NCBI GenBank assembly: GCA_016186435.1
Contig: JACPLQ010000020.1
Location: 1 to 49,352, forward strand
Source of the DNA: Candidatus Nomurabacteria bacterium
Lineage (GTDB): Bacteria > Patescibacteriota > Minisyncoccia > Phycocordibacterales > UBA9973
Reading direction: 5' to 3'
Length of the DNA stretch: 49,352 bases
In this document: one piece after another, positions 3,546-48,151 of the stretch
How positions within the stretch are numbered: position 1 is the stretch's first letter
Layout: every line of letters starts with the position of its first letter
Program-made: the position numbers and the translations under genes
Notes under the pieces: model-generated
Database searches by the model: none
Told to the model about the DNA's origin: nothing
The model's input: only the letters and a program-made list of their open reading frames with translations

Positions 3546-3818
3546 TTATTTAAACATTTTGCAAAATGACAAAATGTTCCTTCCCCTCTTAGTAAGGCTA
3601 TGCATTACGAACCGACCTTCGTATCTTTTTTCCACTAGCCCGGCATCTGCTAATTTGCGTATGTGGTCAGAAATCGTAAAAAATCCAACATTCAAGTTCT
3701 GAGATATATCATCAACCGATAAATTTGAAATTCTTCCTAAGAGTTCCAAAATTTGAATCCTTCTGTGGTTGGCGAACCCCTTCACAATTTTCTCAACTCT
3801 TTTATATTTTATATTCAT
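3546..3818 (-). CDS. ArsR/SmtB-family winged-helix transcriptional regulator
   Basis: 90 aa with an ArsR-like HTH region (FANHRRIQILELL...ISDHIRKLADAGLVEKR). No obvious alpha-3 CXC metal site. Flanked by 29-bp perfect inverted repeats. Confidence 0.8.
   Translation of the reverse strand: MNIKYKRVEKIVKGFANHRRIQILELLGRISNLSVDDISQNLNVGFFTISDHIRKLADAGLVEKRYEGRFVMHSLTKRGRNILSFCKMFK
3548..3576. promoter_or_regulatory. 29-bp box containing the palindrome CATTTTGCAAAATG (left inverted repeat, in the arsR-like 3' end, upstream of ogt)
   Basis: ATTTAAACATTTTGCAAAATGACAAAATG is the perfect reverse complement of 3835-3863. Confidence 0.6.
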
Positions 3819-3834: not shown

Positions 3835-3863
3835 CATTTTGTCATTTTGCAAAATGTTTAAAT
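3835..3863. promoter_or_regulatory. 29-bp box containing CATTTTGCAAAATG (right inverted repeat, arsR-like promoter region)
   Basis: CATTTTGTCATTTTGCAAAATGTTTAAAT. The TTGCAA core lies 16 nt upstream of the ATAATA -10 box of the ArsR-family gene. Confidence 0.6.
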
Positions 3864-4822: not shown

Positions 4823-4944
4823 TGAGTAAATTCCGCATATGTTGAAATTACTCACATCTACGCTATAGCGTAGATTCAATCCCTGGGGACTTCCCTAGTA
4901 ATATCTCTAGGGGTTCATTCTAATGTTCTATAGAATTTTAGAAT
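4822..4944. terminator. four consecutive hairpins in the convergent intergenic region
   Basis: - GTGAGTAA/TTACTCAC (4822-4855)
- 20-nt perfect palindrome ATCTACGCTATAGCGTAGAT (4856-4875)
- CCCTAG/CTAGGG (4893-4912)
- ATTCTAA/TTAGAAT enclosing TTCTATAGAA (4917-4944). Confidence 0.45.
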
Positions 4945-4977
4945 AACACTTTTTCGTGACCGCGAAATTCCGTTATG

Positions 4978-6750
4978 TCAGTAAACTTCCTGCTGGTAAC
5001 ACTTTTCACAGTACACTATTTCCGGCCGCTCCGGAGCATAGGTGGTCTCAAATTCCACTTTACATTTTCCTTTGCCATGAAAATGTTCTGTTGTCGCTTG
5101 TGATGAGCCAGTCGAACCGCACATGCAATCTCGGTGATATAATTTCAATTCCGGCATAATTTTGCATCTTTCATAATACCTGCAATTCGGGCAAAGGATC
5201 GGAAGAGGTATTTGATGCTTCTTATAAAAATTCAGTTCATAATTGGTGATTCGAAAGGCTTCCGTACACTGATGAGTGCAAATTCCTTTGTGTTCACATC
5301 CCAATACTTCATTTAAAATATTTTCATCAACTTCATCTAGGTCATCGGGAATTTCATCTGCTGTGATTGTAATTTCAAAATTTCTTTGTTCTGGATTCCT
5401 CCACGCATATCCTCTTTTTTGGACCTCCTCTCGAGTTAAAGGCGCGAGTTCTTGCGCCAGGGTTTCGTTGTATGACCAGGGTGAAAGTTCGATGGGGAAA
5501 AATTCGCCGTAATTGTATTTTATTCCTATCTTGTCTATGAAAGGGATGTCTTTCATCTGTTGAATAATCTTTTGTCGAATATTCTTAAAATCTTCTTTGG
5601 AATATTTTTTATTGAAAATAGCGTATTCTATACTTCGGAGTGAGATACAGCCCAAAATATTTGAGCAATTTCTGCAGGAATCAGTATAATCTGCGTCCCG
5701 CACCGAACTTATGGCGTTGTGGGTAAACTTAACATTGAAATTATCTAATGCCCCAGTGATATACTCATATAAAAGTTCTGAATCTTTTCCATAATCAAAG
5801 TCCATGGAATCTTTATAATTATAGCCTCTATAGCAATAGCGGGCATTTTCCACGTTGTATATCTCGAAACAATTCTTGCAATTTTTGACGTTTAAAAGTC
5901 TGTCTCCGGTGGCATTTACTGACTGGGTAATATTAGTAAAACGATATATCGCCTTTTTCTTGATATCTGAAAATTCTTCTTGCAAAAAATTACGCGAAGC
6001 TCTGCTCTTTAAATTAAATTTTTCCAGCTCTTTAAAATACTCATTTTTCGTATATTGTGTATTTTTAATGCAAAACTTTTTATTACGCAAATTATAGGAA
6101 AGAAAGCAATTACTGCAATTTATGCAGTCCACCAGATAATAAGAATCTAGACAATTTTTAGAAGAAAAAAGATATTGGCAATTATAATTACCCTGGCCTT
6201 CTACATTTTCATATAAAATTTCGGAACCGCTTATGATATTCAGAGAATCAACTATATCTTTCGAACCGTCTACGTTTTTGGAATAAAAAATATTTTCAGA
6301 TTCTTTCGTTACAGAATAAGACAAGTAGACACTACGAGAGTCAGTGGCCATATTTGCATAATCCGAATTGATAGCGTTTCGTTGCCATAATGCCAACCGA
6401 GGAACGACATCCTGTAGCTCTTTATATTGTTCGAAAAAATTACGGGAAAAATCATACTCACGACCATGTGAAAGAGGATCCCATGCATCGCCAAACCAAC
6501 ATTCACGGCAATAAACGGGAAAAGGAACATCAACATTGTACATGGCTATTATGTTTTTATTACAAAGATCACACGTACGGCGGTATAACGTTCTTTCGTT
6601 GCGCCAGGTAAATCTTCGTATCCGTCGACACCATGGGCAAAAGGTCGGCGGCGGGACTTTAATCTTTTCATAAAATCCAAAATCGTCCGGCTCAATGACG
6701 AAGTCCTGTTTGCAATTCTGGCATATTCGGTTTTCTGTCTTGTAGTTCAT
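4978..6750 (-). CDS. large cysteine-rich multi-CxxC protein, paralog A
   Basis: N-terminal zinc ribbons (CQNCKQDF...CPWCR, CDLC...CREC). Internal repeat ending in ...NKKFCIKNTQYTKNEYFKELEKF. C-terminal ribbon ...ERPEIVYCEKC. Start moved to the ATG at 6750 (MNYKTEN); the track start at 6765 is a TTG inside the palindromic box. Confidence 0.75.
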   Translation of the reverse strand: MNYKTENRICQNCKQDFVIEPDDFGFYEKIKVPPPTFCPWCRRIRRFTWRNERTLYRRTCDLCNKNIIAMYNVDVPFPVYCRECWFGDAWDPLSHGREYDFSRNFFEQYKELQDVVPRLALWQRNAINSDYANMATDSRSVYLSYSVTKESENIFYSKNVDGSKDIVDSLNIISGSEILYENVEGQGNYNCQYLFSSKNCLDSYYLVDCINCSNCFLSYNLRNKKFCIKNTQYTKNEYFKELEKFNLKSRASRNFLQEEFSDIKKKAIYRFTNITQSVNATGDRLLNVKNCKNCFEIYNVENARYCYRGYNYKDSMDFDYGKDSELLYEYITGALDNFNVKFTHNAISSVRDADYTDSCRNCSNILGCISLRSIEYAIFNKKYSKEDFKNIRQKIIQQMKDIPFIDKIGIKYNYGEFFPIELSPWSYNETLAQELAPLTREEVQKRGYAWRNPEQRNFEITITADEIPDDLDEVDENILNEVLGCEHKGICTHQCTEAFRITNYELNFYKKHQIPLPILCPNCRYYERCKIMPELKLYHRDCMCGSTGSSQATTEHFHGKGKCKVEFETTYAPERPEIVYCEKCYQQEVY

Positions 6751-6771
6751 TTTGTCATTTTGCAAAATGTT
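6748..6771. promoter_or_regulatory. same box overlapping the start codon of cysteine-rich paralog A
   Basis: CATTTTGTCATTTTGCAAAATGTT. The first CAT (6748-6750) is the complement of the ATG start. Confidence 0.55.
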
Positions 6772-6780
6772 ATAATTTCA

Positions 6781-15586: not shown

Positions 15587-15659
15587 CCCAGTACTAAAAT
15601 TTTAAATTTTTATTTTTAATGGTTATTTATTTTACTCAAAAATTTAGTACGGGACAAGT
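15587..15659 (-). promoter_or_regulatory. leader stem-loop, copy 2 (ribH); its 5' arm lies inside the ribE 3' coding end
   Basis: Minus strand reads ACTTGTCCCGTACTAAATTTTTG...TTTAAAATTTTAGTACTGGG|ATG(15586). 73 nt. Confidence 0.6.
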
Positions 15660-16215
15660 ATTTAGCAGTTATATCAAATTCCAGATTCACCAAATCGCCT
15701 TTTGTCTTATATTTTAAATTGGTGTGTTTCAGAGTATGTGGAATGACTTTTATAACAAAAGAATCTTTTAAAACCTTGGCCACTGTCAAGCTGATGCCCT
15801 CAACCGCAACCGACCCTTTGTAAACTAAAAACTTTTTAAACTCTTTATCCGGCAACTTTATATCAAATACTTTTGAATTCCCCTCTGTCTTTATGCCAAG
15901 AATTTTACCTCTTCCGTCAACATGCCCCAGTACTATGTGACCGTGGAGCCGGTCATTCAAACGCATCGACTTCTCAACATTCACTATATCCTCTTTTTTT
16001 AAAAAGCTCAAATTGGAGAGTTTCAAGGTCTCCGGCATATACTCAAAAGAAATGTTTTTGCCGACTCCTTTTATTGTGGAGCAAACTCCGTTTACAGCAA
16101 TGCTTTCACCTTTTTTTAATTTCCCAAGATTGTTGTAAACTTCCAAGTTAAGACCACTTTTACTCAGCTTTCTGCTTTTTACTTTTGAAGTTTTGGATAT
16201 TATACCCGTGAACAT
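15616..16215 (-). CDS. ribE: riboflavin synthase
   Basis: The N-terminus MFTGII is typical. Start set at the ATG 16215, which directly follows the conserved ...AGTACTGTG arm. The track start at 16218 is a GTG one codon upstream. Confidence 0.9.
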   Translation of the reverse strand: MFTGIISKTSKVKSRKLSKSGLNLEVYNNLGKLKKGESIAVNGVCSTIKGVGKNISFEYMPETLKLSNLSFLKKEDIVNVEKSMRLNDRLHGHIVLGHVDGRGKILGIKTEGNSKVFDIKLPDKEFKKFLVYKGSVAVEGISLTVAKVLKDSFVIKVIPHTLKHTNLKYKTKGDLVNLEFDITAKYLSRTKFLSKINNH

Positions 16216-16234
16216 CACAGTACTAAAATTTTAA
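16216..16234 (-). promoter_or_regulatory. half copy (3' arm only) of the leader element, in front of ribE
   Basis: Minus strand reads TTTAAAATTTTAGTACTGTG|ATG(16215). No matching 5' arm found upstream. Confidence 0.45.
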
Positions 16235-16241
16235 ATCTTTC

Positions 16242-20998: not shown

Positions 20999-21005
20999 AA
21001 TGGAT

Positions 21006-21116
21006 CCCGTACGAAATCGCGGACGCATATAAGTAAAATAATGAAATTCATTCAATCGATTATTAATAATAAAATAAAGGGAATAGCGTAAGTGTACGCG
21101 TCCTATTTCGTACGGG
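21006..21116 (+). promoter_or_regulatory. diverged leader stem-loop, copy 7 (recR)
   Basis: CCCGTACGAAAT-cgc-GGACGC (21006-21026) pairs with GCGTCC-t-ATTTCGTACGGG (21098-21116), which directly abuts ATG 21117. Confidence 0.55.
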
Positions 21117-21752
21117 ATGGACATTATAGACAGGCTAACCGAAGTGTTCAAAGAGTTTCCGGGAATCGGCGAACGGCAAGCAAAGCGCTTTGTATATTTT
21201 TTAATGTCCCGCAATCCTGCATATGCGGAAAATTTATCGGAACTAATTTTGGAATTAAAAAAAGAAATCGCCCAATGCAAAGAGTGCTTCAGATTTTTTA
21301 TATTGAATAAAGGAAAAGAGAAATTATGTGATATTTGCGGAAACGTGAACACCGACTCCTCTACCCTGCTGGTAGTTGAAAAAGATTCAGATTTAGAAAG
21401 CATTAGAAAAAGTAGAGTGTATAATGGGAAATATTTTATCCTTGGCGGTCTTGTGCCAATCGTAGAGAAGACTACAAAGAGCCGGGTGCGAATTGAAGAA
21501 TTGAAAAATAAAATAAGTAGCGAGGCAAGGCCTAGCTCGCTAGGCCTTGCCTCGCTGAAAGAAATTATTCTCGCATTTTCCATCAGTCCCCAGGGTGATC
21601 ACACAGATACGTACGTGCGAGCCGAACTAAAAGAAATAGTCGAAAAATCCGGCATAAAAATTTCCTCTCTAGGCAAAGGCCTCTCCACCGGCACAGAACT
21701 GGAATATTCCGATAACGACACACTCAAAAATGCCTTAAAAAATAGACAATAA
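21117..21752 (+). CDS. recR: recombination protein RecR (carries an in-frame palindromic insertion)
   Basis: HhH N-terminus (FPGIGERQAKR), C4 zinc finger (CKEC...CDIC), Toprim region. Confidence 0.9.
   Translation: MDIIDRLTEVFKEFPGIGERQAKRFVYFLMSRNPAYAENLSELILELKKEIAQCKECFRFFILNKGKEKLCDICGNVNTDSSTLLVVEKDSDLESIRKSRVYNGKYFILGGLVPIVEKTTKSRVRIEELKNKISSEARPSSLGLASLKEIILAFSISPQGDHTDTYVRAELKEIVEKSGIKISSLGKGLSTGTELEYSDNDTLKNALKNRQ
21519..21556. repeat. GC-rich palindromic element, family 1, in frame inside recR
   Basis: AGCGAGGCAAGGCCTAGC-tc-GCTAGGCCTTGCCTCGCT, encoding SEARPSSLGLASL. Confidence 0.7.
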
Positions 21753-21786: not shown

Positions 21787-22104
21787 TTATTTTATAGAAG
21801 TTATTTTTACTTTAAAGAAAGGCTGTCTGTGGCCGTTGCGGCGCAGGTAGCGGGATTTTTGCTTGTATTTTACTACTAGAATTTTTCTTGCTCGGCCGAT
21901 TTCTACGATTTCTGCATCTACTTTTGCGCCGTCGATGTACGGAGTGCCGATAGTAGTATCTTTACCGTCGTCAACCAAGAGCACTTTATCAAAAGAGAGC
22001 TTGTCCCCTTTTTTAAATTCGCCTTTAATTTTCTCAATAGAAACAAAGCTCCCTTCGGAGACTTTGTACTGCTTGCCGCCTGTTGTTATAACTGCGAATT
22101 CCAC
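21787..22104 (-). CDS. rplU: 50S ribosomal protein L21
   Basis: MEFAVITTGGKQYKV... is a typical L21 sequence. GTG start. Confidence 0.92.
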   Translation of the reverse strand: MEFAVITTGGKQYKVSEGSFVSIEKIKGEFKKGDKLSFDKVLLVDDGKDTTIGTPYIDGAKVDAEIVEIGRARKILVVKYKQKSRYLRRNGHRQPFFKVKITSIK

Positions 22105-22110
22105 CCTTGG

Positions 22111-22116
22111 ATATTA
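22111..22116 (-). promoter_or_regulatory. -10 box TAATAT, 6 nt before the rplU GTG (22104)
   Basis: Minus strand: TAATAT-ccaagg-GTG. Confidence 0.35.
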
Positions 22117-22126
22117 GCTTAAATTT

Positions 22127-22135
22127 TGTTATAAT
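22127..22135 (+). promoter_or_regulatory. extended -10 box TGTTATAAT upstream of leader copy 4
   Basis: TGTTATAAT-gcaagt-CACCTGTCCCG... Confidence 0.55.
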
Positions 22136-22141
22136 GCAAGT

Positions 22142-22214
22142 CACCTGTCCCGTACTAAATTTTTGATTACGGGACATAACGATAAATATTATTATTTAAA
22201 ATTTTAGTACTGGG
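22142..22214 (+). promoter_or_regulatory. leader stem-loop, copy 4 (AI-2E permease)
   Basis: CACCTGTCCCGTACTAAATTTTTG...TTTAAAATTTTAGTACTGGG|ATG(22215). 73 nt. TGTTATAAT box 6 nt upstream of the element. Confidence 0.6.
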
Positions 22215-23240
22215 ATGCAAACAAAAACTATTGAGCGGCTTTTCTTCTTTGGGCTATTATTCACGACGCTTATTTTTACCTTTATGATATTCCGCCCGTT
22301 TTTAATAGTGCTGATACTTGGCATATCATTTTCTATCGTGCTTCATCCCGTCTATGAATGGCTCACAAACAAGAAAATTCCGGAGTGGCTTGCTTCTCTT
22401 CTCACGGTGCTTTTGTTTATCATTCTATTATTGGGACCGCTTTTGACTATAGGGACAATTGTTTTTAACCAAAGCCAGGACGTTTACAGGACAGTAGTAA
22501 GCGAAGGAAGCGCTAAGCCATTTTTAGACAGCATTGAAACTAAGGTCAATAATATATTGCCGGATATGGTGGATATTGATGTCAACCAAAAAACGTCAGA
22601 CTTTATTTCTTACGTTTCGGATAATATTGCTAATATTTTTAGCGCGACACTTTCCGGCTTTTTCTCTTTCCTCCTTATGCTTCTCATAATATTTTATTTT
22701 TTGAAAGACGGAGTAAAATGGAAAAGGGCTTTGGTGTTAATTTCCCCTCTTGGAGACAAGGATGATGAGAAAATAATTTCCAGATTGGCGCTGTCGGTAA
22801 ATGCAGTGATAAAAGGGTCTATGTTTGTGGCTCTTATTCAAGGAACGCTTATGGGAATAGGCCTCTCTATTTTCAATGTTCCCAATCCGGCGCTTTGGGG
22901 AGTCGTAGCCGCTGTGGCGGCCTTTCTGCCGATGATAGGAACGGCTCTTGTGTCCGCTCCGGCTATTATTTATCTCTTTTACATGGGAAGCACAGGCGCA
23001 GCTATCGGCCTTTTAATCTGGGCAGTGGTGGCAGTAGGGCTCGTGGATAATTTCTTAAGTCCATTTATAGTTGGCAAGAAAATACAATTGCCATCGCTCA
23101 TGATATTGTTTTCGGTGCTGGGAGGAATTTCGCTTCTGGGACCTGTGGGAATCCTCATAGGGCCATTAACCATAAGCCTCCTTTACACTCTGATCTCAAT
23201 TTACCGAAATGAATTCTTCAAACAAAATGCAGTTTTATAA
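22215..23240 (+). CDS. AI-2E family transporter (PerM-like permease)
   Basis: 341-aa polytopic membrane protein with an AI-2E/UPF0118-like pattern. Confidence 0.8.
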   Translation: MQTKTIERLFFFGLLFTTLIFTFMIFRPFLIVLILGISFSIVLHPVYEWLTNKKIPEWLASLLTVLLFIILLLGPLLTIGTIVFNQSQDVYRTVVSEGSAKPFLDSIETKVNNILPDMVDIDVNQKTSDFISYVSDNIANIFSATLSGFFSFLLMLLIIFYFLKDGVKWKRALVLISPLGDKDDEKIISRLALSVNAVIKGSMFVALIQGTLMGIGLSIFNVPNPALWGVVAAVAAFLPMIGTALVSAPAIIYLFYMGSTGAAIGLLIWAVVAVGLVDNFLSPFIVGKKIQLPSLMILFSVLGGISLLGPVGILIGPLTISLLYTLISIYRNEFFKQNAVL

Positions 23241-26778: not shown

Positions 26779-28278
26779 TCATATCATAGGTTCGCCTTCT
26801 TGGGAAGATTTTGGCTCATTTTTCTGCGCTTCTCTTTCTTTTCCCTCGGGCTTAGCCTCACGGGCGAGCCTTTTTGCTCTTCCTTCTATGATAGCTTTTT
26901 CTTCAGCGCTTCGGATGATAGTGGCCTCTTCTTCAGCAATAAGTTTTGCGGCATCTCCTTTCGGTATGGAGTATTTTCTTCGTGAAGCAGCTATAATTTC
27001 TTCCCTGCAAGAAGAATGCGTTGGCGGAAGAACTCGGAGGGTTTCTGCCGAAAAAGGATCGTAGGATTCGCCGTCTATAGTCATCTTTACATAAATTTCT
27101 CCGACTGCGAGATTGATCATATCTTTCACGTCAAAGAGCGGAGCAAATTCCGGCTTCATTTTTACCGCATCCTCGCCGCCGATACGAAAAGTTATGATGC
27201 TTCCGCAGTTACCGAGCACAGCCTGATGAACTTTCGGCAGAATCTGTCCCACATATTGATGCGCCATGGTAAGATTGAGACCATATTTCCTAGCCTCTGA
27301 TAAAATATTTTCAAAAGTTTGAGTCACGACATTTTGAAACTCATCCACATATAGATAGAAATCTACCCGGTCTTTTTCCGGAATAGATGCGCGCTCCATG
27401 CCGGCTTGTTTTATTTTTGTTAAAAATATAGAACCCAAAAAAGAAGAATTTTCTTCGCCGAGACGGCCTTTGGATAAATTAATTAGGATAATTTTCCCCT
27501 CATTCATTAATTTGCTAATGTCTATTTTGTTCTGCTTCTGTCCGAAAATATTTCGCAGGAGCGGATCCGAGAGAAATTGCCCGAGCTTGTTCACAAGCGG
27601 GATAATAGCGTCAGTATCAAATTTTTCAGACCAGTCGGCGAATTCAATAGCGAAGAATCTTTTCACCATGTCATCCGTAATATATTCCACGACTTTTTGC
27701 CGGTAATTTCTGTCAGTAAGCATAGAAATCATTCCGCGCATGGTCGCATGCGGATAGTCCAAGAGCGCAAGACAGGTAAAACGAAAAACGTGCTCCAACC
27801 TCGGAGTCCAGTTGGCGCCGAATTGTTTCTGAAAAACTTCTATGAGTCCCTGCGTCAGCTGAAATTTAAACATCGGGTCAACATTAGCGAGCGGATTGAA
27901 TGATGCTGGGAAATCCAAATCCGTAGGATCAATAATACATACATCTTCAATACGCTCTTTGGGAATATAATCCAGCATTGCTTCTATCTCATCCCCGTGC
28001 GGATCTATCAAGCATAGTCCATGGCCATACGAAATATCCTGACGCATAAAAAGTTCAAGCATCTTGCTCTTGCCGACACCGGATTTTCCTATAATATATA
28101 AGTGTCTGCGTCTGTCGACACGCTTGATACCGAAAACGAATTTTTTTTCTTCAAGAGATGCGACATAATTAGTGCGCCCAATAAAAGAAACCTCTTCAGG
28201 CTTGACCTTGCCAAAAACCGGCAGCTCTGGCGGCGGCGGCCCGTATTTTATTATCTGGACTCGATTAGGTTTGGGCAT
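26779..28278 (-). CDS. soluble VirD4/TraG/TraD-like P-loop ATPase, paralog 2
   Basis: Walker A IIGKSGVGKS, Walker B FYLYVDEFQN. Colinear similarity to the upstream 677-aa paralog. No TM segments seen. Confidence 0.7.
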   Translation of the reverse strand: MPKPNRVQIIKYGPPPPELPVFGKVKPEEVSFIGRTNYVASLEEKKFVFGIKRVDRRRHLYIIGKSGVGKSKMLELFMRQDISYGHGLCLIDPHGDEIEAMLDYIPKERIEDVCIIDPTDLDFPASFNPLANVDPMFKFQLTQGLIEVFQKQFGANWTPRLEHVFRFTCLALLDYPHATMRGMISMLTDRNYRQKVVEYITDDMVKRFFAIEFADWSEKFDTDAIIPLVNKLGQFLSDPLLRNIFGQKQNKIDISKLMNEGKIILINLSKGRLGEENSSFLGSIFLTKIKQAGMERASIPEKDRVDFYLYVDEFQNVVTQTFENILSEARKYGLNLTMAHQYVGQILPKVHQAVLGNCGSIITFRIGGEDAVKMKPEFAPLFDVKDMINLAVGEIYVKMTIDGESYDPFSAETLRVLPPTHSSCREEIIAASRRKYSIPKGDAAKLIAEEEATIIRSAEEKAIIEGRAKRLAREAKPEGKEREAQKNEPKSSQEGEPMI

Positions 28279-28357: not shown

Positions 28358-30391
28358 TCATTCCAAAATTTTCCTCAAGACGTCTTCAGGCACTTCTGGT
28401 GGAACAGTTTTTTGAGACACAGGAGCAGGAGTTGGGGTCTTTTGCGCTATCAAATTTTTCAATTTATTCATGTCTTCCGGGGTCGCCGCGCGATCTTTTT
28501 GACGAGACACGGTTTCTTGTTTGACGTCCCGCATTTTGTCTTTGAGGGTATCGAGGGAAATCGGGCTGGGCGCAGAAGCAGATGGCTGCGGAGCTGATCT
28601 GGAGGTATCTTGCAGCGCCTTGCTTAAAACTTCTTTCAAAGCTGAATGGTCGCTTGGTTTGTCTTTGTGTACAACAGGAGGTTTTGAATGAAATACTTTT
28701 TTAACCGCATTAAATATGCCCGACTTGCTTGCCGGAGGTTGTTGCTGCTGCTTGTGTTCTGCTCTTTCCGGATATCTTTCTTTTTCTTCGTGAATTTTGC
28801 CTTCTTTTGGCGCAAATTCTATGCCCAAATCCGCTAAGGGTTTGTAAAATTTTGAGTCATCATACTTTATCTGATTTTCAGAGCCTTTTTCCACTTTTAC
28901 TTCTCCGGATTTTATTTTAGCAATGCATTCTTTGCAGTATACAGGTCTCCCCGGTTCTGGTTTAAAAGGCACCGTCTTTTCCAGCCCGCAAAGCGAACAA
29001 ATTATCTGGAATTTTTCCATGCTTCCTTGCCCCCCTACATAACCCGCGGAACTCACTCCACTTGGTTCCATGTCACCCAAAGACATTCCGCTCCAATTAT
29101 TTATTTCTCTTTCTACATCTTCTTTGGATTTGCAATAAAGTTTACGAGAAGATTCGATAACCTCTTGTTCAATTTTTCTGTCCCCGCCTTTGACCATCTG
29201 CGGCAGAGTTTTCGCGGAAAAAGGACGGGAGGTCACGCCGTCTATCATAAGTTTCATGTACACTTTGTAGTTCGGCAAATTTACTATATCCTGCGGGACG
29301 AATTCAGGCTCAAATTCTTTTTCCAAAAAGTCCGCATCGTCTGCGCCAACTCTAAAAACTATTATCGTACCGACGTTGCCAAAGACAGCGTCGCGCACGG
29401 CAGAACTCTTGTCAGAAATGAGCTGAGCGGTATATTGGTGCGCCACAGTTAGATTTAGTCTATATTTTCTAGCTTCAGAAAGTATTCCGGCAAATGCGTC
29501 CGTCACGAAATTTTGGAACTCGTCAACGTATAAATAAAAATCTTTGCGATGTTCTTCCGGAATGCGCACGCGCTCCATGGCCGCGAGCTGGATCTTGGTA
29601 ATGATCATGCCTCCCAAAAGCGCCGAATTGTCTTCTCCGATGCGTCCTTTGGAAACATTCACCAGAAAAATTTTCCCTTCATTCATCATGTCAAAAATAT
29701 TTATCGTGCTCCTTGTCTGACCAACGACATTTCTGATAATAGAAGTAGAAAGAAACTGCCCGACTTTGTTTTGGATCGGGGCAATAGCTTCATTTCTAAA
29801 TTTATCCTGCCACGCTTCGTACTCGTGCACCCAGAAAGCCTTGATGACCGGATCCTTCAGGTTGGAAATTATTTTCTGGCGATAGTCTTTATCTACGAGC
29901 ATCCTAGGGATGCCGAGAAGCGTGGTCCCCGGCGTATCAAGCAGAGCCAGAATAGTATTATTTAAAATATATTCCATTCTGGCGCTCCAAGCATTCGCCC
30001 AGATTTTCGTAAATATGCCCATGAGCCCCGAGGCCACTAGGTGCTTATATTGCGGATCTATGAGCTCTAGGACGTTGAAACCAATATGGTAGTCTGTATC
30101 AGCAGGATTAAAATAAACGACATCCTTTAAACGATGCCTAGGAATAGCTGATAAAATTGCTTCTACGTTTTCTCCGTGCGGATCCACCATGCAAACGCCT
30201 TCGCCATTCTGGATGTTCTGAATAATCATGTTGAACATGAGCACAGATTTACCTGTACCGGATTTTCCGAGAATATAAACATGCTGGCGCCTGTCTTTGC
30301 GCTTAATTCCAAAAAGCTGATTCTTATCCCGATAAGTAGTAATTCCCAGATAAGTAACGTCCTTATTTACGGGTATTTCCGGAAGTTCCAT
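28358..30391 (-). CDS. soluble VirD4/TraG/TraD-like P-loop ATPase, paralog 1, with C-terminal zinc ribbon and Pro/Lys-rich tail
   Basis: Walker A ILGKSGTGKS, Walker B FYLYVDEFQN. C-terminal CSLCG...VPFKPEPGRPVYCKEC ribbon. Confidence 0.7.
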   Translation of the reverse strand: MELPEIPVNKDVTYLGITTYRDKNQLFGIKRKDRRQHVYILGKSGTGKSVLMFNMIIQNIQNGEGVCMVDPHGENVEAILSAIPRHRLKDVVYFNPADTDYHIGFNVLELIDPQYKHLVASGLMGIFTKIWANAWSARMEYILNNTILALLDTPGTTLLGIPRMLVDKDYRQKIISNLKDPVIKAFWVHEYEAWQDKFRNEAIAPIQNKVGQFLSTSIIRNVVGQTRSTINIFDMMNEGKIFLVNVSKGRIGEDNSALLGGMIITKIQLAAMERVRIPEEHRKDFYLYVDEFQNFVTDAFAGILSEARKYRLNLTVAHQYTAQLISDKSSAVRDAVFGNVGTIIVFRVGADDADFLEKEFEPEFVPQDIVNLPNYKVYMKLMIDGVTSRPFSAKTLPQMVKGGDRKIEQEVIESSRKLYCKSKEDVEREINNWSGMSLGDMEPSGVSSAGYVGGQGSMEKFQIICSLCGLEKTVPFKPEPGRPVYCKECIAKIKSGEVKVEKGSENQIKYDDSKFYKPLADLGIEFAPKEGKIHEEKERYPERAEHKQQQQPPASKSGIFNAVKKVFHSKPPVVHKDKPSDHSALKEVLSKALQDTSRSAPQPSASAPSPISLDTLKDKMRDVKQETVSRQKDRAATPEDMNKLKNLIAQKTPTPAPVSQKTVPPEVPEDVLRKILE

Positions 30392-30414: not shown

Positions 30415-32319
30415 CTATTTTGTCTCATCTTCACCCTCTTTCTTTTCTTTGAATTCAGCATCTTTGACTTCTGATGGCTGTTCCTCGACTTTAGTCGAGT
30501 CCTGCGAAGCTTTAGCGGAGGAGGATGCCATAGCTTCACCTATTTTAGACATTTCAGCAGACAGTTCTTCGGTAGCTTTCTTGATAGCCTCCCCGTCGGT
30601 GCCGTCTTTTACTTCTTTTACGGCAGCAATTTTTTTATTTACTTCGTCTTTTAATTCCGCTGGAATTTTTGCCTCGTTGTCTTTCAATGCTTTTTCAGCT
30701 GTGTAAATGATCATTTCTGCGGTATTTTTTACATCAACTACTTCCTTCTTTTTCTTGTCTTCTTCCGCATGAAGCTCGGCGTCGGCCTGCATTTTTTTGA
30801 TGTCTTCTTCTTTTAGGCCCGAGCTTGCTTCAATTTTTATTGACTGGGTCTTGCCGGAAGCCTTGTCTTTCGCGGTGACGTTCAATATTCCGTTCGCATC
30901 CACATCAAAAGAAACTTCAATTTGCGGCATTCCGCGAGGCGCTGGCGGAACTCCATCCAAAATGAACCGGCCGAGAGACTTGTTGTCTCCTGCCATTGGG
31001 CGCTCGCCTTGTACTATGTGTATTTCTACAGACGTCTGATTATCTGCAGCAGTAGAAAATGTTTGAGATTTATTTGAAGGGATAGTTGTATTTCTTTCAA
31101 TAAGTTTCGTAGCCACTCCGCCCAAAGTCTCAATGCCGAGCGACAGCGGTATCACATCAAGCAAGAGAACGTCGCGCACGTCGCCCTGGAGGACACCCGC
31201 CTGCACTGCAGCGCCAAGCGCCACTACCTCATCGGGGTTTATTGTCAGGTTCGGAGTCTTGCCGAAAACTTTCTTTACTTCGTCTACGATTTTTGGCATC
31301 CTAGTCTGTCCGCCCACCATTACTATTTCATTCATGTCTTCCATTTTAAAACCCGAAGCTGCCATAGCTCGCTTGGTGATCTCTATAGAACGAGTAACGT
31401 ATTCGTCTGCGATTGATTCCAGCTGGGCGCGGGTCATTTTTAAAAGCAAGTGCTGTGGCCCTTCGGCAGTAGAAGTGATGAATGGAATATTTATTTCAGT
31501 TTCAATGGCAGTAGAAAGCTCTATCTTAGCTTTTTCGGCCGCTTCATCAAGACGTTGCAAAGCAAGCTTGTCGCTTCGCACATCCACACCGGAAGTCTTT
31601 TTGAATTCCTCGGCGATCCAGCCGATAACCTTGTGGTCAATATCGCGGCCACCCAAGTGACTGTCTCCATCTGTAGATTTTACTTCTACAACATCATCAC
31701 CTATTTCAAGAATTGAAACATCAAAAGTTCCGCCTCCAAAGTCATAAACAACTATCTTTTCATTTTTCTTTTTATTAAATCCGTATGCGAGCGCTGCTGC
31801 CGTCGGCTCGTTGATGATACGCTTTACATCGAGGCCAGCAACTACTCCTGCATCTTTTGTTGCTTTTCTTTGCGCATCGTTGAAATATGCCGGTACAGTG
31901 ATGACTGCTTCATTGATTTTTTCACCTAGCTTGGCTTCCACATCAGACTTGATTTTGGATAAGATCATCGCGGAAATTTCTTCGGGGCGCATCCATTTAT
32001 CGCCAATTTTTATTTCTACTCCGCCGTTTGCAGATTTTTGAAGTTTAAAAGATGCATTTTTGAGGTCTTTCTGCACTTCCGGATCATCAAAATTATGCCC
32101 CATGAAGCGCTTAATACCATACACTGTGTTTTCCGGATTCGTAACTGCCTGTCTCTTGGCGAGAAGGCCTACGAGCCTGTCTCCGTTTTTAGCGACAGCA
32201 ACAACCGAAGGAGTCGTGCGGTTTCCTTCCGCGTTTTCAATAATTTTTGGCGCTCCGCCTTCTATGACGGCAACTGCCGAATTTGTTGTACCCAAATCTA
32301 TACCTATTATTTTACTCAT
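30415..32319 (-). CDS. dnaK: molecular chaperone DnaK (Hsp70)
   Basis: [18 protein letters not shown]..., 634 aa, canonical Hsp70. Confidence 0.97.
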
Positions 32320-33005: not shown

Positions 33006-33138
33006 TTAGTAAACTTCTTTATTGTAACAGCTCTCGCAGTAAACCTTTTCTGGCCTTTCTGGCGCGTAGGGTGTTTCAAATTCGTTCTATCGTGAAATCT
33101 TTTTTACAGTTTTTGCATTGTTTAGTTTCCGGATTCAT
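33006..33138 (-). pseudogene. deletion remnant of a cysteine-rich paralog: N-terminal ribbon half and C-terminal ribbon half in different frames
   Basis: Frame 1 (33138-33076) reads MNPETKQCKNCKKDFTIERI*. The adjacent frame (33086-33006) reads NEFETPYAPERPEKVYCESCYNKEVY*, which matches the C-terminus of paralog A (EFETTYAPERPEIVYCEKCYQQEVY). Its ATG overlaps the Fic TGA (ATGA). Confidence 0.6.
33085..33129. repeat. 45-bp perfect direct repeat, left copy
   Basis: TTCTATCGTGAAATCTTTTTTACAGTTTTTGCATTGTTTAGTTTC. Identical to 35521-35565. Confidence 0.9.
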
Positions 33139-33752
33139 TTTTTAGAATTACTTTTTAATCTCTTTAAAATAAAATCCGTCATGGGTTTATTCTTGCCAAC
33201 CGCACCAGAAATGCAAGCGTTTATGTACTCACGTTTAGACGTTGAATTCCAGTTAATAATTTTATAGCCAAGACTGAAGATAAGCAAATCTATAAATAAA
33301 CGTATGGTCCGTCCGTTTCCGTCTCGAAAAGGATGAACTGCGTTAAATTCATTGTGAATAAGTGCTATTTTAGAGGCTACGGTATTTTTAGTATCTTTGT
33401 TTTTGGGTAGACTATCTTTTAAAACCTTATCAAGATATTTCATAGAAGAACCCATGTGCTTGGCGGAGGCGAACATCATACCGCCTTTTGACATGTCTAC
33501 TTCCCTTATATTTCCCGCCCAATCATATAATGTCCCGAGAAAATATTTATGTAGTATAAATAAGAATTTGACATCAAAATCACCTAGGCCAGGTCTATTT
33601 TTCGAAAGAAAAAAATCATATGCGTCTGAGAGCAGAATGGTCTCGGCATCTTCTATCTGTTTTTGGTCTGAAATACCAAGCTTATTTTTTAAAACTCCAT
33701 TTTTTATGCCAGCTTGTTCACTTGAAACATTATAGCGAGAATGCCCGGCCAT
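33135..33752 (-). CDS. fic: Fic-domain protein (AMPylase-type)
   Basis: Fic motif HPFRDGNGRTIR. 205 aa. I saw no internal (S/T)xxxE(G/N) inhibitory helix in this protein. Confidence 0.88.
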   Translation of the reverse strand: MAGHSRYNVSSEQAGIKNGVLKNKLGISDQKQIEDAETILLSDAYDFFLSKNRPGLGDFDVKFLFILHKYFLGTLYDWAGNIREVDMSKGGMMFASAKHMGSSMKYLDKVLKDSLPKNKDTKNTVASKIALIHNEFNAVHPFRDGNGRTIRLFIDLLIFSLGYKIINWNSTSKREYINACISGAVGKNKPMTDFILKRLKSNSKK

Positions 33753-33924: not shown

Positions 33925-35574
33925 TTAGGCGATATGTTGCTTGTAACATTCCTCGCAGGCAATCTTTTGATATCCCCACTCTGGAGGATAATATGCCATT
34001 ATATCCTTTTTACAATAAAAACATTTATAGGGAGAACTTTTCAGAACTACCATTTTGCGTGCTGGTTCTAACATTCTCCTATCAAAATGTTCCCGAGGCA
34101 AAGCAAAATTCCTGTTTTTATGAAATTCAAACTCAGATTGAGAAATATTAAATCGATAGCGAGTTATTGGACAGATCAAGGCTTGGCCACATACAGATGA
34201 ATCAGTGTCTTTCATTTCGTCTGTCAATTCTGTAGATAATATTCCGTCTTTGGAAGAGAAATCTTCTTCCGACCAATAGCCACCTTGCTCCACTATTTCT
34301 TCTTTTGTTGTTTTTGGAAAATAAAGTACTCCTGCCGACAGATTATAGTCACAGATACCCACTGAATAAGGTAAGAATTCCCCGTATTCATCTCCCATAT
34401 CAGAAATAATTTTATTTTTCAATTTTTCATACTCTTCTTTAGTGTATTGTCTATTTAAAATGCAATATTTCTTTTTTCTCAAACCAATACATCCAAAACA
34501 GTTTTCAACATCAATGCAATTATCTAAATACTCAGAATATTTTGCCACAGAATGCGCAGAGTGTTTAATTTGATAACCACCATCTACCGTTCCATTGTTA
34601 CCAGAATTTTCCGTATTCCAAGTAAAAGCTTGATCGATAGAATCTTTGGCATTTAAGCCTCTTATACAATTAAGACAATTTTGCGAATTTTCCCAAGAAA
34701 AAACATTTTTACACTTATCACAGTTGGTCATGTAGTTCCCAGAGGAATTTGTAATTTTTATATTGAAGTTTTCTCGATGGATAGCATCATTTTTTAATAT
34801 ATTCTCAAATTCTATTTTATATGAATTTAATTTTTTATAAGAGCCAAAATTAAATTCGGCTAATTCTTTCTCGTATTCATCTTTTGTATATTGCTGGTTC
34901 CTTATACAATAGCGTTTATTGCGAAGGTTCCAAGACATTACACAATCCTGACAATTTCGACAATCAAACAAAAAATATGAGTCTATGCAATCCCGCGAGT
35001 TTTCTGAAAAATTTAAATTAAACGAACTATGGCAAAATAAACAGTTATATGATTTTTGCATATCAAAACAGTACACCAAATCAAAAGAATCTTTACTGGT
35101 TAAAACTCGATAACAATAACTCAGGTTTTCACATTTCCAAATTGCTCTGCTTAAATAAATGTTTTTTGATTCCCATGTATCCTCAGACCAATCACAAGCA
35201 TAATTTTTTCTACCTATTTGATGAGCACGCGGGACTTTTTCTTGTAACTCTTTTAGTTGAGTGAAAAATGGTTTAGTGGGATCATATTCCTGACCAAAAG
35301 ACATCGGTTCCCAATTATCTCCCCACCATTCATGAGAAGTATAAATAGGAAACCGAGCATTTTCTGGCAAAACAGTTATAAAGCTTTCTCCAGAAAGATC
35401 CGACTTCCCTTTTCTGAACTTTCCAAAAGGAGCAAATGAAAAATATTGCTACCATCTGCAGTCGCAACACTTGCGAGGAATTTTTAAGCCTATTTTTTCA
35501 TAGAAATTAAAATCTTCACTTTCTATCGTGAAATCTTTTTTACAGTTTTTGCATTGTTTAGTTTCTTCTTTCAT
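33925..35574 (-). pseudogene. cysteine-rich multi-CxxC protein, paralog B, interrupted by an in-frame TAG at 35449-35451
   Basis: ATG at 35574 gives MKEETKQCKNCKKDFTIESEDFNFYEKIGLKIPRKCCDCRW-TAG-QYFSF.... This runs in frame into track ORF 33925-35370. It is colinear with paralog A. Confidence 0.6.
35521..35565. repeat. 45-bp perfect direct repeat, right copy
   Basis: Identical to 33085-33129. Encodes ETKQCKNCKKDFTIE on the minus strand. Confidence 0.9.
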
Positions 35575-35612
35575 AATTACTCATAACACTTTATCGCGAT
35601 CGAGAAATTTTG

Positions 35613-36221
35613 TTATGTTTGGTCTGCTTCTCCGCCTTTGTATTCGTATAAATTTACTCTTGCCGGACGGATGACGCGCTCGCCCAGCTTGTATCCCCTT
35701 TGAATTACTTTTGCCACTTTGTGGTCCAATTCTTTTTTATCTGTTTCCACCATATCTATTGATTCATGTATATTCGGATCAAAAGTTTCACCCTCTACTC
35801 CTGTGGGCTTAACTCCATATTCTTCAAAAATAGTATTGAGTTGGGAATAAATATGCTGTATGCCTATTCGCCAATTTAAATCTACTTTTTCCCATACTTC
35901 TTTGTCAGAAAAAGCTATGTTGAAACTATCTATAATAGTAAGAAACCGAGTCAATATACGCTCGCGCATTGCTTCGGAAAACATCGCCTTGCGGTCATCT
36001 TCTTGCTTCCTGTAATTTGCGAATTCCGCTCGCTCTTTCTGCCAGCCGGTCAGGTATTCTTCTTTTTCTTTCTTTGCCTGCTTCAAATCTGCCCTAAATT
36101 TCTTTAGAGTTTTCTTTAAATCCTCTTCCCCGTCTTCATTAAATTCAAACTCAAGAATCTCCGATTCCTCTTCTGCTTGCTGTTCTTCTTTTTTTTCTGT
36201 TTGTTCTTCATCATCACTCAT
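35613..36221 (-). CDS. grpE: nucleotide exchange factor GrpE
   Basis: GrpE C-terminal pattern (GVKPTGVEGETFDPNIHESI, VIQRGYKLGERVIRPARV). The ATG at 36221 lies 6 nt after TGCTAAAGT. Confidence 0.9.
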   Translation of the reverse strand: MSDDEEQTEKKEEQQAEEESEILEFEFNEDGEEDLKKTLKKFRADLKQAKKEKEEYLTGWQKERAEFANYRKQEDDRKAMFSEAMRERILTRFLTIIDSFNIAFSDKEVWEKVDLNWRIGIQHIYSQLNTIFEEYGVKPTGVEGETFDPNIHESIDMVETDKKELDHKVAKVIQRGYKLGERVIRPARVNLYEYKGGEADQT

Positions 36222-39579: not shown

Positions 39580-39960
39580 TTACGTCTTGCTTTCTTTTCT
39601 CTTACCGGACGCCATGGTTTTTCTGACATTGCCTCTGACTGTTCGGGAGTTTGTCTTGGTGCGCTGTCCTCGGACCGGCAGTCTTTTAATATGTCTTAAG
39701 CCCCTGTGGCTCTTTATATCTTTCAGTCTTTTTATGTTTGCGGCAATCTCTCTTTTCAAATTACCTTCTATTTGTATCTTTTCAACTATGGCTCTGATGC
39801 TGTTTTCTTCAGCTTCAGTTAAATCTTTTGCGCGCTTGCCGTGATCTATATTAACCTGATCTAAAATTTTTTTAGCGGAAGAAACACCAATGCCGTAAAG
39901 GACTGTCAAGCCAATCTCAAGTCTTTTATCATTTGGTACGGTGATTCCTAATACTCTCAT
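39580..39960 (-). CDS. rpsM: 30S ribosomal protein S13
   Basis: MRVLGITVPNDKRLEIGLTVLYGIG... is a typical S13 sequence. Confidence 0.95.
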   Translation of the reverse strand: MRVLGITVPNDKRLEIGLTVLYGIGVSSAKKILDQVNIDHGKRAKDLTEAEENSIRAIVEKIQIEGNLKREIAANIKRLKDIKSHRGLRHIKRLPVRGQRTKTNSRTVRGNVRKTMASGKRKESKT

Positions 39961-40067
39961 CCCAGTATTAAAATTTTACCTTAGCTATTAATCTTAATGT
40001 ATTTCTATGTTTCATAATTATATTTATTTTTTGTATTACTCAATCAAAAATTTAATACGGGACAGGT
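39961..40067 (-). promoter_or_regulatory. leader stem-loop, copy 5 (rpsM), long-loop variant between rpmJ and rpsM
   Basis: Minus strand reads ACCTGTCCCGTATTAAATTTTTG...GTAAAATTTTAATACTGGG|ATG(39960). Both arms carry the matching C->T / G->A change. Confidence 0.55.
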
Positions 40068-40181: not shown

Positions 40182-40295
40182 AGATAATACAAGAGAAAAA
40201 CAAGGAAAAACCCTTATTTTTCAATACTTTTAACTTTTACAAATCCCAATTAAACAGTAAATACTATAATACACTATAGTTAAAAAAATTACAAG

Positions 40296-40363
40296 CCCCC
40301 ACACCTAGTTTCTAATAGTTTTATAAAAGCACCTTTGGTGTAATTAGAAACTAGGTGTGGGGG
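40296..40363 (-). terminator. very long perfect hairpin (21-bp arms) between infA and rpmJ
   Basis: CCCCCACACCTAGTTTCTAAT...ATTAGAAACTAGGTGTGGGGG. A T-run follows 8 nt downstream on the minus strand. Confidence 0.5.
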
Positions 40364-40372
40364 CAAGTCCAT

Positions 40373-47208: not shown

Positions 47209-48078
47209 TTATTTTAAATATTTTTCTATATTTGCTTTGTGTTCTATGAAATTTTTTGCGTAATGAATAGCGCCTTCTTTGTCATGAAGATAATATAGAT
47301 AAGGCGAATTTTGGGTATGGATCGCAGCATTAATAGCTTCTATTCCCGGATTTCCGATGGGAGACTTTGGCAATCCTCTTGTCTTATAACTATCCGGCAC
47401 TGCATCCACCTGAAGCGCCATATTGATACCAATTCTTCTCCACAAAATCCCGGAAATAACTTCTCGGTCGTCATCTCCCTTTGCTTCTCTCTCTATAATA
47501 GATGCCATTATAATAATGTCTTTCTCACTTTTACCCGAAGCTAAAATTTCCGGACGAAGCGGAACTATTTTTTTCTCAAAATTGTCGCTCATAGATTTGA
47601 GCACCACATCTTCGTCTGCATTCTTAAAGAAAAAATAAGTGTCCGGAAAAAGATACCCCTCCATATCTTTTGCCTTAAGCAAGAATTCTGTCTTGTTGAA
47701 ATTCTGGAGCTGCAGGGCAAACATATCTCCAATCTGATTGACATCAAAACCTTCGGGGATAGTAACCGATGCGGGCGCCGTACGGTGTTCCCCTCCGCCA
47801 ATGCGCCGCGCTACTTCAAAAACGGGCAGTTTTCTTTCAAATGTATAATTGGCCGATATTATATTTTTTTCTTTACCAAAAAGTATCACGAAAAATTCAA
47901 AAGCTACTTTTGATTTTATTATGTGCTCTTGTTTTAATATAGACGAGACGCTTCGCAGACTTGCTCCTTTTTCTACCTGAATTGTAACTCCTGCGGGAAA
48001 GTCTCTTGGCGCGCTTAAAAATAAAATAAAAAACACAATTGCGCTGGATATATAAATGGCAATTTTTTTATTCTCCAT
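47209..48078 (-). CDS. mltG: endolytic transglycosylase MltG (YceG-like)
   Basis: N-terminal TM and YceG-like core (ASIIEREA..., YNTY-like DSYKTRGLPKSPIGNPG). Confidence 0.88.
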   Translation of the reverse strand: MENKKIAIYISSAIVFFILFLSAPRDFPAGVTIQVEKGASLRSVSSILKQEHIIKSKVAFEFFVILFGKEKNIISANYTFERKLPVFEVARRIGGGEHRTAPASVTIPEGFDVNQIGDMFALQLQNFNKTEFLLKAKDMEGYLFPDTYFFFKNADEDVVLKSMSDNFEKKIVPLRPEILASGKSEKDIIIMASIIEREAKGDDDREVISGILWRRIGINMALQVDAVPDSYKTRGLPKSPIGNPGIEAINAAIHTQNSPYLYYLHDKEGAIHYAKNFIEHKANIEKYLK

Positions 48079-48151
48079 CCCAGTACTAAAATTTTAATTT
48101 TTTTATAATCATGGTTATTTTACGTCCTCAAAAATTTAGTACGGGACAAGT
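48079..48151 (-). promoter_or_regulatory. leader stem-loop, copy 6 (mltG)
   Basis: Minus strand reads ACTTGTCCCGTACTAAATTTTTG...TTAAAATTTTAGTACTGGG|ATG(48078). 73 nt. TATAAT at 48154-48159 just upstream. Confidence 0.6.

Follow-up and report, generated by a model that had tools for sequence, protein, structure and literature searches.

The element described here recurs at gene starts in a 49,352-nt stretch of DNA from a Candidatus Nomurabacteria bacterium (GenBank assembly GCA_016186435.1, contig JACPLQ010000020.1, positions 1 to 49,352, forward strand; hereafter, the window). It is a two-armed inverted repeat, predicted to fold into a hairpin in the sense RNA, whose 3' arm (arm B) runs directly into the ATG of the gene that follows. 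Seven of the 49 window genes (~14%) are associated with it: there are five full copies, one copy that consists of arm B only, and one diverged copy. A first-pass annotation had listed seven such loci. All of them are present and their coordinates hold, and at each one arm B is followed directly by an ATG and a genuine gene. These genes encode a TrpR-like protein, an AI-2E transporter, lumazine synthase (ribH), a YceG/MltG protein, ribosomal protein S13 (rpsM), RecR, and riboflavin synthase (ribE). The copies and their parts are as follows; types I and II and the long class are defined further below.

11445-11519, plus strand: type I copy before the TrpR-like gene (84 bits; orthologous copies in related loci L044 and L049)
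15584-15659, minus strand: type II copy before ribH (92.8 bits)
16213-16236, minus strand: arm-B-only leader of ribE, UUUAAAAUUUUAGUACUGUG-AUG (19.4 bits)
21004-21119, plus strand: diverged copy before recR (-31.8 kcal/mol, z = -4.0)
22127-22128 (TG) and 22130-22135 (TATAAT), plus strand: extended -10 box (TGnTATAAT), followed by 7 nt and then A22143
22143-22217, plus strand: type I copy before the AI-2E transporter gene (98.9 bits; ATG at 22215-22217)
22147-22166 and 22196-22216, plus strand: arm A and arm B, respectively, of the AI-2E transporter copy
22146-22154 (UGUCCCGUA) with 22168-22176 (UACGGGACA), plus strand: competing 5' hairpin of the AI-2E transporter copy
39958-40067, minus strand: long-class copy before rpsM
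48076-48151, minus strand: type II copy before the YceG/mltG gene (89.3 bits)

Arm A (TGTCCCGTACTAAATTTTTG, allowing up to three mismatches) has five matches in the window against 0.00 expected from shuffles. Arm B (AAAATTTTAGTACTGGG) is matched 10 times where 0.26 would be expected; six of the matches represent arm B itself, and the other four are arm A read on the opposite strand. Every full window copy folds into a long helix (-16 to -32 kcal/mol; z of -1.9 to -4.7 versus dinucleotide shuffles). The window copies are 57 to 89% identical to one another, and none are identical.

The surroundings of the copies vary. Upstream of the AI-2E transporter copy lies a divergent gene, rplU, and the extended -10 box sits just upstream of arm A, as the first-pass annotation had noted; A22143, or the base preceding it, is the predicted transcription start. 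TTGACT-N17-TAAAGT, followed by 6 nt, precedes A11445 at the TrpR-like copy. In the ribH copy, the stop codon of ribE (15616-15618) falls inside the loop, and ATA replaces ATG at the position where a loop mini-ORF (short open reading frame, ORF) would start. The mltG copy begins 3 nt after the end of an upstream ORF (48155-49315) and contains an 8-codon mini-ORF that ends at the arm-B UAG. The arms of the rpsM copy, CCCGUAUUAAA (arm A) and UUUUAAUAC (arm B), include a compensatory U-A pair, and its loop holds TATAAT and a 15-codon ORF ending at the arm-B UAA. A consensus promoter scan reported no promoter in this loop and is uninformative there. The recR copy, which begins shortly after an upstream ORF ending at 20998, pairs AUCCCGUACGAAAU perfectly with AUUUCGUACGGGAU, ending in AUG; it has a long loop and different arms and was not recovered by the element covariance model. 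Because all other copies abut an ATG, the true start of ribE is probably the ATG at 16215-16213 rather than the GTG called three bases upstream.

A further long hairpin on the minus strand (40294-40368), just after an 88-aa gene, has first bases, ACUUGCCCC, that resemble the 5' end of the element, and a U-run comes after it. Its score with the element covariance model is 34.9 bits, and it could be a terminator-like relative or a chance match.

We interpret the element as a family of cis-acting RNA modules specific to the Candidatus Nomurabacteria/Paceibacterota clade within the Candidate Phyla Radiation (CPR). In a scan of representative genomes, the exact pattern AAATTTTARTACTGGGATG matched at least 115 stretches among the matches listed. 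Nearly all of these are labeled as metagenome-assembled genomes (MAGs) of Candidatus Nomurabacteria, Paceibacterota, or Patescibacteria, and the same element is also found in some stretches labeled Saccharibacteria. A single Bacteroidota match is without arm A and looks like chance. Further copies in related MAGs had been anticipated in the first-pass annotation, and a covariance model found additional ones beyond the reach of the search pattern.

The family was analyzed in 913 kb of sequence, comprising the window and 115 loci from related MAGs (8-kb windows each). Here, an ATG directly follows arm B (up to two mismatches) in 127 of 128 copies. Preselection by a pattern containing ATG did not apply to 12 of the copies; 11 of these have ATG, and the remaining one has ATA. 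Both arms are present in 119 copies, and all full copies are in the sense orientation. Measured from the first base (the A of ACYTG) to the G of ATG, they fall into two tight length classes of 73 to 77 nt (91 copies) and 108 to 114 nt (27 copies), with one copy of 81 nt. Leaders consisting of arm B only lie directly behind TGnTATAAT promoters in L051 and L067; the others are the ribE copy of the window and a deletion derivative in L074.

The module occupies the entire gap from the previous gene, or from the promoter, to the ATG. The ORFs downstream of it are nearly all long (median, 181 codons) and mostly belong to core genes, including those for S2, S13, S14, L11, NusG, SecY, FtsA, Obg, a GatA-type amidase, PurA, and T2SS-F.

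The first-pass annotation did not recognize the element as a described RNA family, and Rfam 15 agrees, with no match at gathering score over the whole window. A permissive Rfam 15 search of 22050-22300 returned chance matches only (E = 7.7-9.9), and no tRNA or tmRNA genes were found in the window. [quoted passage not shown] The novelty lies in one conserved module that has the start codon as its 3' end in ~99% of copies, with interchangeable devices in its loop, in a CPR lineage without Shine-Dalgarno (SD) sequences.

The invariant parts of the module are 5'-ACYUGUCCCGUACUAAAUUUUUG and UUAAAAUUUUAGUAC(U)GGG-AUG. The 5'-ACYUGUCCCGUAC... at its start pairs with the ...GUAC(U)GGG-AUG at its end to form an AU-rich helix of 19 to 20 bp that has a conserved bulged U and a conserved U·U mismatch. 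This pairing had been described in the first-pass annotation, where the helix was thought to end at position -1 of the AUG. The pairing stands, but the endpoint does not, as the AUG is itself paired in the predicted fold: G5·U(+2) and U6-A(+1) lie within it, and U4 stands opposite G(+3) in 89 of 90 aligned copies. Thus, the whole AUG can be paired at the base of the helix by weak pairs (U·G, G·U, and U-A) in the folding model. The predicted structure encloses the start codon, as in translational-coupling hairpins.

We show that the covariation in this helix is genuine. In an alignment of 90 short copies, 98.8% of cells hold a standard pair. Changes on both sides occur in three pairs, the main one being C-G to U-A, which is seen in three aligned copies before different genes. 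The same change is present in the rpsM copy, which is long and hence outside this alignment. In the recR copy, CCCGUACGAAAU is paired with AUUUCGUACGGG; both this and the rpsM change bear out the compensatory substitutions reported in the first-pass annotation. Covariation was judged by pair counts with shuffle and column-shift controls. The observed score was reached by none of 500 shuffles, and sliding the 3' partner by one column lowers pairing to 52-55%.

Because the search pattern fixed arm B, its variation is censored, and it is arm A that supplies the informative changes: C to U facing G, A to G facing U, and G to A facing U. Each one-sided change in the lower stem (columns 5-17) retains a pair, and does so in the sense-strand RNA only; 1766 of 1788 cells are paired in the sense strand versus 1506 in the complementary strand. 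A sub-family in L007, L032, L054, and L057, recovered with the covariance model and a search for the 5' core, has the arms GUUAGAAAAUU/AAUUUUCUAAU and keeps ACUUGUCCCG...UGGGAUG. The four copies that were folded have a helix that is uninterrupted or nearly so and ends in AUG, without the bulge and the mismatch; a fifth member occurs, by sequence, in L103. Across all arm variants, the CCC/GGG base and the AUG never change. Because one-sided changes are wobble-compatible on the sense strand only, because compensatory changes occur, and because the sub-family keeps the helix, we assign the structure to RNA of the sense strand. The pattern of substitution identifies a hairpin family under selection for pairing.

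The loops contain discrete modules. Of the 90 short copies aligned, 50 are type I (51 under the rule applied in the context counts below). Its loop reads GAUUACGGGRYAUAAMGAUAAAGAUUAUUAAU, of which ACGGGRYA pairs with the 5' sequence UGUCCCGU to give a competing hairpin of 9 bp that is 98% paired. The only frequent polymorphisms in this hairpin are C/U opposite G5 (32:16) and A/G opposite U6 (23:26), both of which are wobble-neutral. Fold prediction indicates that the competing hairpin can form once 40 nt have been transcribed, at -12 to -13 kcal/mol compared with -17 to -20 kcal/mol for the full helix. The existence of two mutually exclusive folds, as suggested by the first-pass annotation, therefore applies to type I; the copies concerned are the first and second (11445 and 22143), not the first and fourth as it had stated.

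Of the 40 copies classed as type II, 27 have an ATG in the loop that begins a mini-ORF exactly 10 codons long. It encodes M-T/V/K-x-I/F/K-I/N-N/K-N-L-K-F, and its stop codon (UAG or UAA) lies inside arm B, 7 nt before the main AUG. We considered whether the ATGACC of type II loops might be a -35 box; the long copies keep the ATG and not the GAC, making the ATG the conserved feature. The 10-codon mini-ORF is also present in seven long copies. By eye, these long copies are a short copy plus ~35 nt that contain TATAAT or TAGACA-N17-TAGATT. A small short sub-type has TGATATAAT in the loop.

Most copies lie directly behind another gene. Counting co-directional ORFs with a minimum of 80 codons (or of 40 where the end of a locus cuts them), an upstream ORF ends just before the element in 77 of 119 copies. 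An earlier count placed the stop codon 1 to 7 nt before A1 in 63 of 83 copies, that is, ~5 to 11 nt before the first pair. In 12 further copies, including the ribE/ribH pair of the window, the upstream ORF stops inside the element. A terminating ribosome would thus come within reach of the module, or end inside it, in 89 of 119 copies. Among copies without an upstream ORF, a -10 hexamer stands 6 to 9 nt before A1 in ~14 of 35, nine of them with TGn, which predicts a transcription start at the first base of the element; these 35 come from the earlier count, before the 12 copies were reassigned as stopping inside the element, and the promoters were judged by consensus alone. The first-pass annotation took the element to be probably transcribed as a 5' untranslated region. 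This fits about a quarter of copies; in about three quarters the element is an intercistronic spacer whose first base comes 1 to 6 nt past the upstream stop codon, or which has that stop codon within it. A few copies directly follow terminator-like hairpins, with no room for a promoter (L080, L090, L054, and L057). Type I is enriched among copies without an upstream ORF (21/30 versus 30/89; odds ratio 4.6, p = 0.0006).

The genes of the window appear to be read without SD sequences. The first-pass annotation had found no SD before the genes that follow the element, and this extends to the whole window, where none of the 49 genes has an SD-like motif. In 22 of the 49, a -10-type hexamer lies 4 to 9 nt (mostly 6) before the start codon, most often as TATAAT-6 nt-ATG, an arrangement typical of leaderless mRNAs. 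The genome, at 41% G+C in the window, thus looks SD-less and rich in leaderless genes. The anti-SD motif is absent from a subgroup of Parcubacteria (PMC9297842). The 3' end of 16S rRNA is not present in the related loci examined.

Orthologs of the window genes occur in related loci at 49 to 89% identity. Over 52 orthologous pairs, downstream proteins are 68% identical and fourfold-degenerate sites 39% (near saturation), compared with 91% for arm A and 66% for the loops. Type I loops are about as alike at unrelated sites (0.815) as at orthologous sites (0.826), suggesting that they stay near a consensus rather than drift by descent.

We tentatively favor, without calling it probable, the reading that the element is a start codon-masking module for translational coupling or gating. 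The helix would mask the AUG, and initiation would occur only when the base of the helix has been opened or has never formed. The sequences themselves establish the family, its pairing signal in the sense strand, its geometry, and its loop modules with their conservation and turnover; masking, coupling, translation of the mini-ORF, and the sites of transcription start are what we infer from them. Four routes to an open start codon can be envisaged. First, a ribosome terminating on the previous gene, with its stop codon just before or inside the module, could open the helix; by juxtaposing stop and start codons, the helix would suit coupling by unfolding or by re-initiation. Second, in type II and some long copies, the base might be opened by translation of the loop's 10-codon mini-ORF, which has its stop codon in arm B. 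Third, the competing 9-bp 5' hairpin of type I, the usual promoter-proximal type, may capture arm A during transcription. Fourth, transcription starting inside the loop of long copies would yield an mRNA with arm B alone as its leader. The module would in this way tie expression of a gene to its upstream neighbor or to a folding decision. Its copies have probably spread as a palindromic repeat or from one.

Masking hairpins that are opened by upstream ribosomes are an accepted model of translational coupling (PMC12548453). The known cases (phage f1 VII-IX, MS2 coat-lysis, and Escherichia coli rpmI-rplT; PMC12548453) resemble the element in that a helix encloses the downstream start and an upstream ORF ends near or inside it. 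However, coupling hairpins are individual and gene-specific and usually mask an SD, whereas the element is one sequence family reused in many species. It also differs from them in having no SD, a helix that ends in AUG, interchangeable loops, and no upstream ORF in ~25% of copies.

Several observations weigh against masking and coupling. The near-invariance of the arms exceeds the needs of pairing, which suggests either that a protein, RNase, ribosome, or transposase reads their sequence or that the copies have been homogenized. The four routes to unmasking leave unexplained why the helix is kept, and each functional step in them is deduced from sequence. No upstream ORF is found at 30 of 119 copies, so coupling cannot be the sole route. 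Moreover, both short type II copies in the window are without the 10-codon mini-ORF, one having ATA at its start and the other having eight codons.

The turnover of the element counts against the same reading. It is dispensable for individual genes: related MAGs have empty orthologous sites for pilC-like, rplK, nusG, rpsN, and other genes. These empty sites carry stop-4 nt-ATG or a leaderless-type promoter, e.g., TATAGT-8 nt-ATG before rplK. In the secE-nusG-rplK region, the element precedes nusG or rplK but never both among the loci examined (L030, L036, L056, and L057 versus L059, L089, and L094); where it is missing, the gene is preceded by a leaderless-type promoter or a short AU-rich spacer. 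Types are also swapped at orthologous sites, like the turnover of a repeat. Before the GatA-type amidase gene, we find long, long, and I; before nusG, we find I, long, I, and I; and long alternates with I before rpsN, a DHFR-like (folA) gene, and an atpB-like gene, which were named from their N-terminal sequence alone. Finally, there are short hairpins of ~40 nt (GUCCCGUAGUGAGC-UUUG-CUCUACUACUGGGAU) that have the same stem base and are intergenic in both orientations, one of them abutting an ATG:

L071, 4004-4017: short hairpin
L075, 6381-6394: short hairpin
L064, 2286-2299: short hairpin
L082, 1754-1767: short hairpin

One alternative, which we regard as unlikely, is that the helix is a site for RNase III or another double-strand-specific RNase. 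Cleavage would produce AUG-proximal 5' ends usable by leaderless-tuned translation, as the first-pass annotation had proposed; it would also separate cistrons and leave a protective hairpin on the upstream RNA. The ~20 bp of double-stranded RNA that an RNase III signal needs are present, in a helix of about two turns (19-20 bp) with its conserved bulged U and U·U mismatch. Bulged or mismatched two-turn helices resemble known RNase III signals. Those of the T7 early region (R1.1 type) are likewise recurrent, imperfect, intercistronic hairpins of about two turns, but they are not known to abut the start codon, and each downstream cistron has an SD of its own; cleavage of the element is hypothetical. 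The window lacks SD motifs and looks rich in leaderless genes, so translation from AUG-proximal 5' ends should be possible. CPR bacteria keep RNase III, RNase J, and PNPase (PMC12641178), and in Neisseria mRNAs, RNase III cuts at the inverted repeats of Correia elements (PMC2649163, PMC10969869). However, cleavage leaves unexplained the tight spacing between stop codon and helix, the association of type I with promoter-proximal positions, and the mini-ORF. Nor does it explain the near-invariant arms, given the little sequence specificity of RNase III, and the variant sub-family has a perfect helix with neither bulge nor mismatch. A leaderless promoter alone would be the simpler arrangement for promoter-proximal genes, and it is one that orthologs use.

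It is equally unlikely, in our assessment, that the element is simply a selfish, non-autonomous palindromic repeat, either MITE-like or like repetitive extragenic palindromic (REP) sequences, that persists only at harmless positions, exactly between an ATG and the stop codon or promoter preceding it. Under this hypothesis, the hairpin would keep stop and start codons together, the stops in all frames would belong to the repeat, and the arms would be recognition sites for a transposase. The family has much that would be expected of such a repeat: many dispersed, similar copies with inverted terminal arms of ~20 bp, as in MITEs; discrete sub-families; presence/absence and type replacement at orthologous sites; loops without phylogenetic signal; short relatives with the same stem base in both orientations; and a partial deletion derivative in L074.

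Other features are at odds with a purely selfish repeat. Every full copy is in the sense orientation and 99% of copies abut an ATG, in contrast to MITEs, which insert in either orientation at varied intergenic positions. REP sequences and bacterial interspersed mosaic elements are imperfect palindromes of 20 to 40 nt that occur in either orientation, mostly at gene 3' ends. Full elements differ from them in being 73 to 114 nt long, sense-only, and placed at gene starts; the 40-nt relatives partly fit. No variable target-site duplication is seen at the flanks by eye, where there is only a conserved ...TG[TCCC...GGGA]TG, although the junction is not pinned down by the empty sites available for comparison, which are those of diverged genomes. 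The G·U and U·G pairs that extend the helix exist in the sense RNA alone, and arm A retains 91% identity between orthologous copies, with synonymous positions there close to saturation. The 57 to 89% identity of the window copies indicates that there has been no recent burst. No transposase was identified, and no search aimed at transposases (or RAYT) was made.

The closest known parallels on this side are the Correia elements of Neisseria and ERIC/IRU (PMC2649163, PMC10969869). These are also dispersed short repeats with inverted arms and insertion polymorphism between genomes; they are co-transcribed, fold in mRNA, and can carry promoters or be RNase III targets. Correia elements target TA, with duplication, are found in either orientation and at no fixed distance from genes, and bind IHF. 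The element, in contrast, is strictly sense, has a start codon as its 3' end, and shows no recognizable target duplication.

Rather improbable, in our view, is a broader role as a general SD-independent initiation device of CPR, acting by hairpin-bridged re-initiation or through arm B as a new kind of ribosome-binding leader. In the bridging version, the helix would link the site of a loaded ribosome (the 5' end or the previous stop) to the AUG, with re-initiation across the base of the hairpin. In the leader version, arm B (UUAAAAUUUUAGUACUGGG) would be recognized by a ribosome that lacks the anti-SD, and arm A would be a built-in anti-leader. The bridging version would be a bacterial counterpart of shunting or of hairpin-bridged termination-reinitiation. 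We know of no established bacterial equivalent of shunting. In the 35S leader of cauliflower mosaic virus (CaMV), a short ORF ends a few nucleotides (5-10 nt) before the base of a stable stem. The layout of the element is similar, with a stop codon 5 to 10 nt before the stem base and a start codon at the landing side. The analogy is one of layout only, CaMV shunting being eukaryotic, scanning-dependent, and found in a single viral leader. Another partial parallel is ORF-11 of attI in class 1 integrons, a very short ORF that ends a few nucleotides before a start codon without an SD. Unlike ORF-11, the mini-ORF of the element lies in a hairpin loop and ends with a stop codon that belongs to the arm proposed to mask the AUG.

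Still further from what we would expect is a promoter or insulator cassette, in which the loop would supply a downstream promoter, arm B would be the leader, and arm A would serve solely to silence, by masking, or to terminate read-through transcripts of the upstream gene. Consistent with this are the ~35-nt insert of long copies with TATAAT or TAGACA-N17-TAGATT, the TGATATAAT loop sub-type, the copies right after terminator-like hairpins (L080, L090, L054, and L057), and the arm-B-only leaders behind TGnTATAAT promoters (L051 and L067). The element also stands at classical operon starts (rplK, rpsM, rpsB, and nusG), with nusG or rplK, not both, in each locus. However, type I and most type II loops have weak -10-like hexamers, which AT-rich loops give by chance; the rpsM loop has no promoter in the consensus scan; and in many copies a good promoter is already present immediately before arm A. 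A cassette thus does not account for most of the short copies. Taken by itself, arm B makes a poor candidate for a leaderless promoter, with its TAAAAT 12 nt before the ATG as against 6 to 8 nt at leaderless-type genes, giving a 5-nt leader at best.

Very improbable, finally, are an RNA thermometer, to which an AU-rich helix with a mismatch and a bulge over the AUG might point, and a DNA-level site (dimeric-regulator operator, invertible promoter, or cruciform), which the arms resemble as an inverted repeat. A thermosensor, one of the proposals of the first-pass annotation, is rejected on helix stability. At -27 to -35 kcal/mol at 10-20 C, and -17 to -20 kcal/mol at 37 C, the helix is too stable to breathe at groundwater temperatures, the likely in situ range given the groundwater and aquifer names of many MAGs; the marginal stability of a thermometer is not found. 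An operator is disfavored by two spacer length classes of variable sequence, by wobble-type variation that points to sense-strand RNA, and by unrelated downstream genes without common regulon logic. The loops, at 30 to 65 nt, are never seen inverted, and the arms differ consistently in the bulged U, which excludes an invertible promoter. An intrinsic terminator is likewise rejected, as the helix is followed by GGGAUG and coding sequence and not by a U-run.

These explanations can hold together. All of the observations would be accommodated by a palindromic repeat that has been domesticated and serves as a coupling device and an RNase III target at once.

CPR bacteria, or Patescibacteria, are a large and uncultured share of bacterial diversity, and some are without the anti-SD. 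To our knowledge, nobody knows how the start codon is chosen on leadered or internal CPR cistrons. An abundant, conserved module at the start codons of core genes gives a concrete handle on this question. The element also marks true start codons and can aid gene calling, as with the ribE start, and it provides a covariance model for censuses across genomes. As a palindromic repeat family restricted to a single functional position, the element is also relevant to how regulatory parts arise from selfish repeats.

The window contains other repeats. A 29-nt repeat with a perfect 14-bp palindrome (CATTTTGCAAAATG) occurs at 3548-3576, 3835-3863, 6748-6776, and 43982-44010. It adjoins the start codons of small genes and of a Zn-ribbon paralog (4978-6765) and looks like an operator for a dimeric regulator. 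Separate repeats of 36 to 76 nt join the ends of the Zn-ribbon gene family (4943-5055, 33008-33157, and 35521-35618). Three adjacent genes (26779-28278, 28358-30391, and 30415-32319) share repeats at a spacing of 2179 nt and look like paralogs. In addition, a GC-rich 32-nt palindrome (GAGGCAAGGCCTA...TAGGCCTTGCCTC) is present twice, at 2138-2169 and 21522-21553. One copy is intergenic. The second lies in frame within recR, where it encodes ..SEARPSSLGLASL.. and lengthens the Toprim domain, resembling the in-frame palindromic insertions of the Rickettsia type.

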